From Thermoproteota archaeon (GTDB lineage Archaea > Korarchaeota > Korarchaeia > Korarchaeales > Korarchaeaceae), in contig JAOZFG010000016.1 of NCBI GenBank assembly GCA_027491435.1, positions 1-23,965 on the forward strand: DNA of 23,965 nt, given 5' to 3'. The translations under genes and the position numbers were made by a program. The notes beneath the pieces were generated by a model that saw only the letters and a program-made list of their open reading frames with translations, had not been told where the DNA came from and did no database searches. Within the stretch, counting starts at the first letter, position 1. The number at the start of each line of letters is the position of its first letter. Below, in pieces: positions 4,868-12,701 of this stretch.

Positions 4868-4973
4868 GCCGGGGTACCCTAGCCAGAGGGCCTAGCCCGG
4901 CTAAGAAAGGGGCCGGACTCGAGATCCGGTGGCCGTTACGGCCTCGTGGGTTCAAATCCCACCCCCGGCGCCA
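4868..4973 (+). tRNA. tRNA-Ser(CGA) with non-canonical 18-nt D-loop intron (4887-4904) and encoded CCA
   Basis: Acceptor GCCGGGG/CCCCGGC, D-stem CCCT/AGGG, anticodon arm CCGGA-CTCGAGA-TCCGG, long variable arm, T-arm GTGGG-TTCAAAT-CCCAC, G73 and CCA. Removing 4887-4904 restores the D-loop AGCCAGGAA. Confidence 0.93.
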
Positions 4974-7975: not shown

Positions 7976-8713
7976 ATGGGGCCCGTGGAATCTAGGTTAA
8001 ATGAGAAACTGAAAGAAGGAACTTTACTAGCGGTACTCATAGACCCATTTAACGTTGACGGGAGCTCGGCAGAGAGGTTAGCTGCAGAGGTTGAGAGGGG
8101 GGGCGCTGACCTAATACTCGTTGGCGGATCAGTTGGGGCTGGCTTTAAGCTATCCGAAGTGGTTAGGGGAGTGAAGAGGGGTAGCTCCCTCCCAGTCATC
8201 CTGTTCCCTGGGAACGTCGATGGGGTGACCCCTGAGGCTGACGCAATACTGTTCATGTCGTTACTCAACAGCTTAAACCCCTATTGGGTGATACAGGCCC
8301 AGGCTCTGGCAGCTCCCTCAGTTAAGCTATCAGGCCTCGAAGCCATACCCACCGCATACCTAATAGTGGAGCCCGGAGAGAGGAGCGCCGCCGGTTGGGT
8401 TGGTTCAGCTAACCCAATCCCCAGGAGGAAGCCAGAATTGGCTCTGGCCTATGCTTGGGCAGCCGAGCTTCTGGGAATGCGGTGGATATACTTGGAGGCT
8501 GGAAGCGGCGCTGAACAACCAGTCCCCGTGGAGATGGTTAAACTAGTCTCGGAGAAAGCTAACCTTAGAGTCATAGTGGGGGGAGGAATCAGAAGCCCGG
8601 AAGCCGCCAAAGAGAGGGCATCGGCCGGGGCTGACGTTGTAGTAGTGGGCACTCACGTGGAAAGTGGTAGTCCCTACGAGAAGGTCAAGGAGCTCAGCAG
8701 GGCAATAAAGTGA
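7976..8713 (+). CDS. Geranylgeranylglyceryl phosphate synthase (GGGPS/PcrB family)
   Basis: LIDP, VGGS, LPVILFPG, ADAILFMSLLNS, YLEAGSGA and VGGGIRS. SD GAGGTG upstream. Confidence 0.95.
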   Translation: MGPVESRLNEKLKEGTLLAVLIDPFNVDGSSAERLAAEVERGGADLILVGGSVGAGFKLSEVVRGVKRGSSLPVILFPGNVDGVTPEADAILFMSLLNSLNPYWVIQAQALAAPSVKLSGLEAIPTAYLIVEPGERSAAGWVGSANPIPRRKPELALAYAWAAELLGMRWIYLEAGSGAEQPVPVEMVKLVSEKANLRVIVGGGIRSPEAAKERASAGADVVVVGTHVESGSPYEKVKELSRAIK

Positions 8714-8813
8714 CATTAACTAGGATAAAGATAACTTATTTAACTATAATCATGACATTTACCAATTGGTTAACCGCAACGTTTATAGAATCGGTCCTTC
8801 CTAGAGTAGTGGA

Positions 8814-8889
8814 AGCCCCGTGGTGTAGCGGCCAAGCACGCCGGGCTCTGGACCCGGAGACCCCGGTTCGAATCCGGGCGGGGCTACCA
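8814..8889 (+). tRNA. tRNA-Gln(CTG), encoded CCA
   Basis: Acceptor AGCCCCG/CGGGGCT, anticodon arm CCGGG-CTCTGGA-CCCGG, T-arm CCCGG-TTCGAAT-CCGGG. TATA-like TTTATA at 8782-8787. Confidence 0.96.
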
Positions 8890-8964
8890 CCTATTCTCCT
8901 TCTACTTTCAGAACGTTTATCCCGCTCTCCTTAAAACACTGCTCAAGCTAGGGATAAGAACCAG

Positions 8965-9041
8965 TGGCGGGCCCGGGGGGCTTCGAACCCCCGACCTCCC
9001 GGTTAAGAGCCGGGCGCTCTACCATACTGAGCTACGGGCCC
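8965..9041 (-). tRNA. tRNA-Lys(CTT), encoded CCA
   Basis: Reverse complement reads GGGCCCG TA GCTC AGTATGGTA GAGC G CCCGG CTCTTAA CCGGG AGGTC GGGGG TTCGAAG CCCCC CGGGCCC GCCA. Confidence 0.96.
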
Positions 9042-11375: not shown

Positions 11376-11450
11376 AGTTACCCGGTAATTGAGCTTCCCC
11401 TACATAAAATTTTATCAATGGGTTGGTGAGGCTAGATCTGGGGAGAGGAA

Positions 11451-11615
11451 ATGCCCATAGAGGATCCGTTCAAAAGGAGTATAGCCATGAAGGCCCTGCT
11501 AGGATATAAGATATGCAGGAAGTGCGGCGCCAGGAATCCCTTGTCGGCCACTAAGTGTAGGAGGTGTAAGAGTAAGAACCTGAGGCTCAAGAAGACGAAG
11601 CTCGTCAGGAAGTGA
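11451..11615 (+). CDS. rpl40e: 50S ribosomal protein L40e (not in the supplied ORF track)
   Basis: Translated by hand: MPIEDPFKRSIAMKALLGYKICRKCGARNPLSATKCRRCKSKNLRLKKTKLVRK. The KICRKCGARNP..ATKCRRC zinc motif is diagnostic. Confidence 0.95.
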   Translation: MPIEDPFKRSIAMKALLGYKICRKCGARNPLSATKCRRCKSKNLRLKKTKLVRK

Positions 11616-11616
11616 T

Positions 11617-11622
11617 GAGGTG
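11617..11622 (+). promoter_or_regulatory. Shine-Dalgarno GAGGTG, 5 nt before ATG 11628
   Basis: Same GGTG-N5-ATG geometry as GGGPS (7976), sucD (10277), EF-1beta (12970) and rps15 (19314). Confidence 0.65.
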
Positions 11623-11627
11623 TTCTC

Positions 11628-12701
11628 ATGAGCGGGCCCGTGGCTCAGCATGGATTAGAGCGCCGGCCTGCGGAGCCGGAGGTCGGGGGTTCAAGTCCCC
11701 CCGGGCCCGCTTTACTTCTTCTGGTCCTCCTGATAATCCCCACATTTCAAGTGAGCGGACAAGGGCCTGTCTTCGACGCAGTAATAGTTAGGGGGGATAT
11801 ATACCCAGACTGGCTGATAGCGAGCGCTTACGCAGTGACTCACAAGATGTGGGTCATACACCTAACCTCCTACAACGAGCAGGACGTCCTGAAGATGCTT
11901 GAAGGGCTTAAATCGTACAAAAAGGAGGTGCAGGTTCTTATAGTGGGGGCACCAAACGCTGTCTCCCTGGACTTCGAGGGGAAGCTGAGAAGTCTGGGAA
12001 TAATGGTGAGCAGGATAGGCGGGGCCACTAGGTACGATACCTCCTTACTCTTGGCCATAAACTTCTGGCGAGATTGTAAGAAGGTGGTGCTGGCCAACGG
12101 CTTGAGGGTAGACCAGTACATGATGGCCCTGTCCATGGCCCTCAAGGAGAAAGCCCCCATAATCTTCACTAACAATGGGAAACCCCCGGAGGGATTCTAT
12201 CAAGCGCTAGAGGTCCACCTCAAGGAAGTAGAGGAGATTTTGGTGGTGGGAGATAGCCTCTCACCCATAGATAGGGACAAGCTGTTGGACAAAGGGTATA
12301 AAGTCTCTAAGGTGGAAGGGAACCACGAGGTAAAGATAGTGGAGAGCTGGTCCTGGCAATACACTTTAAGGAGCCTTGTAAACCCCTATTCCTTGGCAAT
12401 AGGCCTCCTGATAGGGATAGTGGCCGGATTCACGCTTTCCAAGGTTAGGGGCAAACAAACTCCATCAGTGGACATAAGCGAGTTCCTCACGGTGGATGAG
12501 AGGAAGGTTGTGGAGCTGATAAGGGAGAGGGGCAAGCTCACCCAAGATGAACTGCCAGAGCTGACCGGGTTCAGCAAGCCAAAGGTGAGCAGGTTGATAA
12601 AGGACCTAGTAGATAGGAACATAGTTACCAGGAAGAAGTCAGGCAAGACCTACGTGTTGAGGCTATCGGAGAGGTTCAGAGAGACTGTAAGCGTCGAGTA
12701 G
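11628..12701 (+). CDS. Predicted membrane-anchored regulator: signal peptide, cell-wall-binding-2-like region, TM helix, C-terminal wHTH
   Basis: h-region [12 protein letters not shown]2-like IVGAPNAVS and [34 protein letters not shown], and w[15 protein letters not shown]...[23 protein letters not shown]. The start position is uncertain because it overlaps the tRNA. Confidence 0.8.
11634..11709 (+). tRNA. tRNA-Arg(GCG), CCA not encoded; nested in CDS 11628..12701
   Basis: GGGCCCG TG GCTC AGCATGGATTA GAGC G CCGGC CTGCGGA GCCGG AGGTC GGGGG TTCAAGT CCCCC CGGGCCC G. All stems are fully paired. Confidence 0.95.

Follow-up and report, generated by a model that had tools for sequence, protein, structure and literature searches.

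Introduction

A transfer RNA (tRNA) and a messenger RNA (mRNA) can be made as one co-transcript, as in the bacterial tRNA-tufB operon, where a single promoter serves the tRNA and the mRNA downstream. Nesting of a whole tRNA gene within a protein gene goes one step further. The closest described case that we found comes from Alphaproteobacteria, in which selC, the gene for tRNA-Sec, is predicted to lie in a C-terminal extension of selB; the report (Mukai 2021, PMC8124441) calls this the first bacterial case and cites mitochondrial nesting, such as a tRNA-Lys within cox1 of Armadillidium vulgare. Here we describe an archaeal locus from a 23,965-nucleotide (nt) stretch of a Korarchaeaceae genome (contig JAOZFG010000016.1, positions 1 to 23,965; hereafter, the window). 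In this locus a tRNA-Arg(GCG) gene sits on the same strand between a proposed start codon, preceded by a Shine-Dalgarno (SD)-like sequence, and the predicted signal peptide of a membrane-tethered regulator.

One frame runs from the ATG at 11628 through the tRNA to a TAG at 12699-12701 (open reading frame, ORF, 11628-12701) and is free of stops over 357 amino acids (aa). The initial annotation of the window had proposed this nesting from the letters alone. Every coordinate and detail it gave, from the stop of rpl40e, the SD, the ATG and the tRNA to the 357-codon frame, held when the sequence was re-read, and an intact same-strand tRNA between start codon and export signal is strongly supported by the relatives described below. 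We think it fairly likely that the regulator is in fact translated through the tRNA sequence from this SD-ATG.

Relatives keep the reading frame on both sides of the tRNA

The host genome (1.64 Mb, 99.46% complete) has 48 tRNAs predicted by ARAGORN, and in three others (Leu-GAG, Arg-CCG and Gly-TCC) a frame is open into the downstream gene, each of these genes having its own ATG after the tRNA. We therefore rejected the open frame alone, which is weak evidence here; it is the comparative pattern that goes beyond chance, and the case must rest on relatives.

These were drawn from species-representative genomes, metagenomes and all 38 genomes of the order. A protein search returned 29 homologues, of which 20 begin M-x-GPVAQ.., that is, 6 nt before the tRNA; those named by NCBI or JGI begin later. 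What we call layout A is that of the window's genus (g1, Korarchaeum-like, 21 species genomes), as opposed to the sister genera g2-g5. Its order is rpl40e, SD-ATG, tRNA-Arg(GCG) and hydrophobic core, with no spacer, and rpl40e lies directly 5' of the tRNA in all 18 assessable loci, with a gap of 18-64 nt. We examined 23 layout-A loci, 20 of them distinct (L038, L039 and L042 are exact duplicates). Of the 21 genomes, 18 hold the whole region, two are cut or fragmentary there and one has no assembled ortholog. Codon-position counts and the position-by-position counts of the start region exclude one exceptional locus, L011. In 17 of the 18 genomes and 19 of the 20 loci, a conserved ORF runs without a break through an entire same-strand tRNA.

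Directly behind the tRNA, the DNA changes in the way a coding sequence does. Over the first 10 codons of eight equal-length loci, the minimum numbers of changes at codon positions 1, 2 and 3 are 9, 1 and 14. Pairwise differences are likewise most frequent at position 3, then position 1, then position 2 (6/1/10 and 4/1/10 are examples), and all six linker lengths found (62, 68, 71, 74, 77 and 83 nt) equal 2 mod 3. Nearly all of the first nine post-tRNA codons have T in the middle, and positions 1 and 3 vary. A caveat of the initial annotation, that the leucine run might only reflect a pyrimidine-rich trailer, fails before this period-3 pattern. Judged by its substitutions, the hydrophobic stretch is evolving as protein from the first codon past the tRNA, and the comparison shows this coding character to reach right up to the tRNA end. 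On the other side there is only a start codon and one further codon, and the evidence for coding is the conserved SD-ATG.

The linker offers few places to begin a protein. From the tRNA end to the nearly invariant FDAVxVRGDIY, no in-frame ATG, GTG or TTG occurs in nine of 20 loci and nine of 18 genomes. The window has a single such codon, GTG 11751, and we confirmed the earlier remark that it is without an SD and already past the hydrophobic stretch. Where database annotations steer clear of the tRNA, they have the protein start within the conserved domain, at MIVRGDIY or VRGDIY. Nor can translation begin at the first post-tRNA codon itself in the lineages of the window (TTA) and L012 (TCC).

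A conserved start region before the tRNA

A start codon stands in frame exactly 6 nt 5' of tRNA position 1 in 19 of the 20 distinct loci; in L012 this is a TTG, with an ATG at -9. Counted by genome, 17 of 18 congeners keep an in-frame ATG at -6 or -9, a displacement of exactly one codon. Stops, frameshifts or loss of the upstream ATG in relatives had been named in advance as what would speak against the nesting, and this check favours it: the same 17 of 18 keep both ATG and open frame. An SD match of at least 5 nt at a spacing of 5-8 nt is present in 16 of 20 loci and in 15 of 18 genomes. Position by position (19 loci), A at -6 is found in 18, T at -5 and G at -4 in all 19, the bases from -7 to -13 vary, and those from -14 to -18 are rich in G. 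The comparison thus shows a conserved start region, and on alignment grounds the combination of conserved ATG, free spacer and G-rich block is the signature of a translation start and not of inherited sequence. Genome-wide, SD 5-mers are most frequent 3-8 nt ahead of the first ATG in long ORFs, where they accompany 30.5% of first ATGs versus 13.3% of internal ones. The count uses the general SD consensus, the 16S rRNA with its anti-SD being missing from the assembly.

The base at -1 (window 11633) is C in 19 of 19 layout-A loci despite being a third codon position (AGC, GGC, AAC), and it can pair with the discriminator G73. This invariance suggests a constraint at the RNA level, perhaps on 5' processing.

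How is the tRNA itself transcribed? The gap between rpl40e and the tRNA is 18 nt in the window and holds no AT-rich box; a search of the 40 nt 5' of the tRNA found no AT-rich element either. With neither room nor box between the two genes, the tRNA precursor must come from further upstream and carry the SD-ATG. The AT-rich box upstream of rpl40e (Table 1) is probably the promoter of an rpl40e-tRNA-regulator transcript.

The nested tRNA is probably a working gene

ARAGORN reads the tRNA as Arg(gcg), and Rfam RF00005 matches it over its full length (model positions 1-71) with 65.8 bits against a cut-off of 29. Across the nine distinct layout-A tRNA sequences, all 189 of 189 pair cells hold standard pairs. 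In three pairs both partners have changed together (27-43 C-G/U-A, 49-65 G-C/C-G and 50-64 C-G/G-C), altering the encoded residues as they did so, and the covariation score of 0.122, against 0.047 in shuffles, was reached by none of 500 shuffles. A check for other Arg-GCG genes, proposed at the outset, found this one to be the sole copy in the assembly. All five near-complete congeneric genomes searched have the anticodon-arm motif a single time, at this locus. No paralogue or second Arg-GCG copy was found, although the motif search would miss copies with a different anticodon stem. The comparison shows the DNA to be under a dual constraint, cloverleaf and reading frame, and indicates that the tRNA is functional, as far as such conservation reports on function.

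The codons read by this tRNA are rare: CGY makes up 480 of 297,608 codons sampled (0.66 + 0.95 per 1000, with CGC at 0.95), as against 48.9 for AGG. The tRNA-coded leader itself holds a pair of rare Arg codons side by side (window 11661-11666), CGC (in some relatives CGT) and then CGG, the first of which no tRNA but the one encoded right there can read. A candidate signal of stop avoidance at tRNA column 23, where only T or C occurs and A or G would give TAA or TGA, was discarded as non-discriminating, the untranslated sister tRNA-Arg also having T or C.

For processing, the host has the RNase P proteins Rpp29 and Pop5. RF00373 gave no match for RNase P RNA in this genome, and RF02357 (short type-T) gave a full-length but sub-threshold match (29.7 bits versus 60; G000:C17:36850-37021, minus strand, locus L117); the host RNase P RNA could be divergent or shortened.

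One relative (L009 = G018, L093; L009:2507-2582) carries, through a G36-to-T change, GCT in place of GCG as the anticodon of its nested tRNA; in the ORF the change is synonymous (Ala GCG to GCT). A consensus error could account for it, or the change may be genuine; an Arg-type body would then be turned towards Ser AGY codons.

The nested state is derived

The sister genera g2-g5 carry this gene 12-54 nt 3' of an Arg-CCT tRNA (often intron-containing) or an Ile-GAT tRNA, with stops in between. It has its own ATG or GTG there and a short basic n-region (MKLRNLALACF.., MNRASLAIAAL.., MRHSFLMVPL..), and these tRNAs have a TATA box at about -30..-23. In a maximum-likelihood tree of the mature proteins, from which identical proteins and those under 250 aa were removed, the layout-A rows form one clade with support 90/87; L013, whose contig is cut inside the tRNA, is of the same type. 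Because the sister genera keep an unfused gene with its own start and the layout-A loci form one clade, the nested state is, by comparison, derived, and has a single origin.

In every genus of the family, then, the regulator gene lies close behind a same-strand tRNA (sister loci L014-L022, L029, L046-L056, L106-L116), and the sister spacers leave little or no room for a promoter of the gene's own. A tRNA-mRNA co-transcript thus seems to be the ancestral condition for this gene.

Table 1. Features of the nested locus, in window coordinates.
Feature	Coordinates	Strand	Basis or remark
TATA-like AT-rich box	11404..11415	+	upstream of rpl40e; read from sequence
rpl40e, ribosomal protein L40e, 54 aa	11451..11615	+	PF01020, 28.9 bits vs cut-off 23; stop TGA 11613-11615
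Shine-Dalgarno-like GAGGTG	11617..11622	+	5 nt ahead of ATG
ATG, proposed start codon	11628..11630	+	6 nt 5' of tRNA position 1; then single codon AGC
tRNA-Arg(GCG), 76 nt, CCA not encoded	11634..11709	+	ARAGORN, Rfam RF00005; reads as 25 residues + (A) in ORF frame
Hydrophobic core LLLLVLLII of predicted signal peptide	11712..11738	+	begins with first full codon past tRNA
Polar tail PTFQVSGQG of predicted signal peptide	11739..11765	+	aligns with sister-genus c-regions
GTG, rival start	11751..11753	+	first canonical in-frame start 3' of tRNA; past hydrophobic core; without SD
Extracytoplasmic CWB2-like domain	11775..12317	+	PF04122, predicted local distance difference test (pLDDT), Foldseek
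Transmembrane helix, then basic residues (KVRGK)	12384..12449	+	AlphaFold helix 253-274 and sequence
Cytoplasmic winged helix-turn-helix (wHTH; DUF7343 / MarR-like)	12474..12689	+	PF24034, MarR_2, Foldseek

The encoded protein and its signal peptide

The protein, which NCBI names only as hypothetical, carries an outer CWB2-like domain that matches PF04122 (46.8 bits versus a cut-off of 24.9) and is modelled by AlphaFold with a pLDDT of about 90. In C. difficile, Foldseek finds matches to this N-domain in Cwp6 (5j72_A, 196 aligned columns at E 1.1e-7) as well as in SlpA and Cwp8. Such likeness to extracellular CWB2 modules fits a need for export. Behind the membrane helix (residues 253-274 of the model), the wHTH matches PF24034 (46.4 bits versus 27.6) and PF12802 (MarR_2; 29.3 versus 27), and Foldseek again returns MarR-family proteins. 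Among solved structures, Foldseek showed none that combines a CWB2-like domain, a transmembrane helix and a wHTH.

At the front of the model, residues 1-25 are disordered and residues 26-36, the Leu/Ile run, are helical. The core LLLLVLLII and the tail ..VSGQG were identified by eye, and both align with the signal peptides of the sister genera; the tail PTFQVSGQG falls on the c-regions VSTQQ, TSAQA and SSAQP of those canonical signals. A signal-peptidase site therefore likely lies within 11739..11765.

Other tRNAs and an exceptional locus

The three host tRNAs with chance-open frames lie at G000:C41:36638-36725, C10:101982-102056 (minus strand) and C5:31258-31334, with same-strand genes for an L18e-like protein, a small Cys-rich protein and one unknown within a few dozen nt of their 3' ends; gene callers may over-extend these three genes too. 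In the window itself, tRNA-Gln(CTG) on the plus strand and tRNA-Lys(CTT) on the minus strand converge within 76 nt (8814-9041), and an ORF at 8710-8934 passes through the tRNA-Gln in what looks like an accidental frame. An intron-bearing tRNA-Arg(CCG) at 4868-4973, proposed by ARAGORN in intron mode, was dropped for want of support by Rfam at the gathering threshold.

The exceptional locus L011 (= G025, L104; tRNA at L011:1161-1235) contains a hybrid 75-nt tRNA with anticodon CCG: its 5' half is of the Arg-CCG type, and the 3' half of the tRNA and the linker behind it are identical to those of L041, an Arg-GCG locus with normal layout. The 5' flank is syntenic with the tRNA-Arg(CCG) neighbourhood of the window's genome. 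L011 would thus have arisen by recent recombination between isoacceptor genes, or the assembly has joined two loci into a chimera at the 3' half that both Arg tRNAs share.

Weighing the alternatives

Several observations weigh against translation through the tRNA. Accidental open frames through GC-rich tRNAs are common in the host genome, and all positive cases fall in one genus with a single origin, so that its lineages are not independent. L011 itself has its upstream ATG out of frame, running into a TAG. A very stable fold starts 6 nt after the ATG (for the 151-nt region, a predicted -68.6 kcal/mol at 37 C, or -24.5 when computed at 75 C), and it should get in the way of 30S binding unless ribosomes load ahead of transcription of the 3' half. 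In nine of 20 loci (L001/L003/L037, L041/L043/L044/L045, L012 and the exception L011) a TATA-like box stands 21-29 nt before tRNA position 1 (-29..-21), at a spacing close to that of the tRNA promoters of the sister genera and of the window's genome. Such a promoter would start the RNA at about tRNA +1 and omit the ATG; the box could be a relic or an additional promoter that serves the tRNA alone. In some lineages the first post-tRNA codons include a TTG or GTG that could act as a start. Finally, the n-region would be 28 aa long with two Arg versus three Glu (manual count), not net positive and atypical for a Sec signal; the short, positively charged n-region of a Sec signal peptide is absent from the window's protein, and n-regions of that short basic type occur in the sister genera.

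The most obvious rival is a gene-caller artefact: the tRNA would be a mere neighbour, the protein would start at GTG 11751 without a cleavable signal peptide, and open frame and leucine run would be by-products of a GC-rich tRNA and a pyrimidine-rich trailer. The three chance-open frames among the 48 tRNAs, the NCBI and JGI records that begin the protein after the tRNA, and a tRNA fold unfavourable for initiation beside the ATG all agree with it. We nevertheless consider it unlikely. Coding-type substitution (9/1/14, with T fixed at position 2) begins right after the tRNA, GTG 11751 is not conserved (nine of 20 loci lack any canonical start before the conserved domain), and annotations that avoid the tRNA cut near-invariant residues. 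SD and ATG are conserved where the spacer is not, and in the sister genera a true signal peptide sits at the aligned position. Alternatively, the protein could begin at the first post-tRNA codons, on a near-leaderless ATH, TTG or GTG exposed by a tRNase Z cut or by transcription from a tRNA promoter. In 11 of 19 loci the codon that follows GCN is indeed ATC, ATA or ATT, L001/L003/L037, L041 and L043 have a TTG or GTG among their first three codons, TTG is the first codon in L011, and the nine TATA-like boxes would suit such transcripts. However, that first codon is TTA in the window, L036 and L043-L045 and TCC in L012, none of them a start codon, and no SD stands at a usable distance. The idea would also leave unexplained why an SD-ATG is conserved before the tRNA and why its one-codon shift keeps frame, so we rate it as very unlikely.

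Two further possibilities concern the tRNA. It might be excised like an intron, with a leader-trailer helix cut by the archaeal splicing endonuclease and the flanks ligated to join the ATG to the core. Pairing of the leader (SD or AUG) with the trailer is predicted in L001, L012, L002 and the window, and two loci score well against shuffles (z = -2.65 in L001, -2.05 in L012). Yet z is above -1 in six of nine clade representatives, and cognate leader-trailer pairs (-13.3 kcal/mol) are no better than non-cognate ones (-12.4; permutation p ~0.12 across the nine representatives), so that no conserved helix emerges; purine-rich leaders and Leu-codon trailers pair by composition alone. No bulge-helix-bulge motif was identified at the locus, and exact removal of the 76-nt tRNA, read from the sequence, shifts the frame into a TGA. 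Excision is thus scarcely credible, and a leader-trailer stem as a general feature was rejected on the same p value, L001 and L012 being individually suggestive. In these two loci (approximately L001:2486-2603 and L012:2175-2300) the leader is complementary to the first post-tRNA codons, and there tRNA folding might also hide the start region, which would not be a genus-wide property. It is just as hard to believe that the tRNA is a relic kept only as coding sequence, with Arg-GCG function supplied from elsewhere. The rarity of CGY (1.6 per 1000 versus 48.9 for AGG) and the ORF-synonymous GCT anticodon of L009 (= G018) would be in keeping with this; against it, the 99.46% complete genome has no other Arg-GCG gene, the motif occurs once in each of five of five congeneric genomes, and compensatory changes have preserved the cloverleaf at the cost of the encoded residues.

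A model for translation through the tRNA

How might one RNA serve both purposes? Under translation from the SD-ATG, the reading we prefer, the regulator gene would have lost its own start codon in this genus and would be translated from the SD-ATG 6 nt 5' of the single-copy tRNA, ribosomes reading the 76-nt tRNA in its one suitable open frame. The product would bear a tRNA-coded extension of about 26-28 residues that runs straight into the signal-peptide core and cleavage region. This extension would presumably be removed with the signal peptide, leaving the mature protein unaffected. We envision that the tRNA is tolerated at this site because the residues it encodes are the disposable front of a signal peptide.

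The same DNA would still yield a working tRNA from transcription that starts upstream and passes through rpl40e. Cleavage by RNase P at tRNA position 1 would remove the SD-ATG, so that RNA processed first could not be translated. Ribosomes would therefore have to load early, either before the 3' acceptor strand, 70 nt downstream, is transcribed or behind a ribosome terminating on rpl40e 12 nt upstream; should the tRNA fold first, RNase P would take the SD-ATG away. Both fates could even befall one molecule, the tRNA folding after the last ribosome has passed. Ribosome loading would thus compete with tRNA folding and processing, as the arrangement of the sequence suggests.

Hypothetically, the initial annotation had each transcript go one of two ways, translation or processing into tRNA, which would couple regulator output to tRNA maturation. 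One can carry it further to a self-referential switch, in which the same RNA is either leader of the regulator mRNA or precursor of tRNA-Arg(GCG). Synthesis of the membrane-tethered factor would then depend on, and report, tRNA supply and ribosome loading behind rpl40e, by way of the rare CGC/CGT followed by CGG and without a riboswitch or attenuator. We regard such a switch as an improbable elaboration.

Should ribosomes indeed translate across a working tRNA gene, two unrelated constraints, a cloverleaf and a reading frame, would bear on the same DNA, and the locus would be a natural case of translation and tRNA processing competing on one RNA. The family also suggests a route to such nesting. 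A gene was kept behind a tRNA, and one genus would have lost both the spacer and the original start, with a new start arising on the far side of the tRNA, within the most sequence-tolerant part of the protein, the front of its signal peptide. There is a practical side as well, for pipelines that forbid overlap of coding sequences with tRNAs shorten the regulator into its conserved domain.

Comparison with known systems

The regulator itself resembles known proteins in its parts: by Pfam and fold matches it joins the DUF7343 membrane-tethered wHTH regulators to the CWB2 modules of Cwp6, Cwp8 and SlpA. Its transcript layout is known too. The sister genera show exactly the arrangement of a tRNA-tufB-type co-transcript, in which the ORF does not include the tRNA; in layout A it does, the start codon preceding the tRNA.

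In full-text literature (subscription journals lie outside its coverage), our search for nested tRNAs returned only PMC8124441 and nothing for archaea; if the reading is true, the locus would be the first in archaea by this search. As that paper describes it, selC in selB is likewise a whole same-strand tRNA in a stop-free ORF, inferred by comparative genomics, and shares with our model the idea that folding or processing of the tRNA shuts off the full-length protein. It is bacterial, however, its tRNA follows a functional protein, and tRNA and protein are functional partners. In the archaeal locus, by contrast, the tRNA comes two codons after the start, in the n-region of a signal peptide, so that the whole protein would need read-through; the tRNA is an ordinary single-copy elongator and the protein has no evident link to Arg decoding. 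Relative to that case as described, the unfused precursor state is moreover preserved here, in the sister genera. The mitochondrial examples, as cited there, also nest a tRNA on the same strand in a coding region, but they involve reduced tRNAs in compacted organelle genomes, whereas here a full 76-nt cloverleaf is kept in a free-living 1.6-Mb genome. Gene overlap of this kind is known, though very rare, and the locus is a different form of it.

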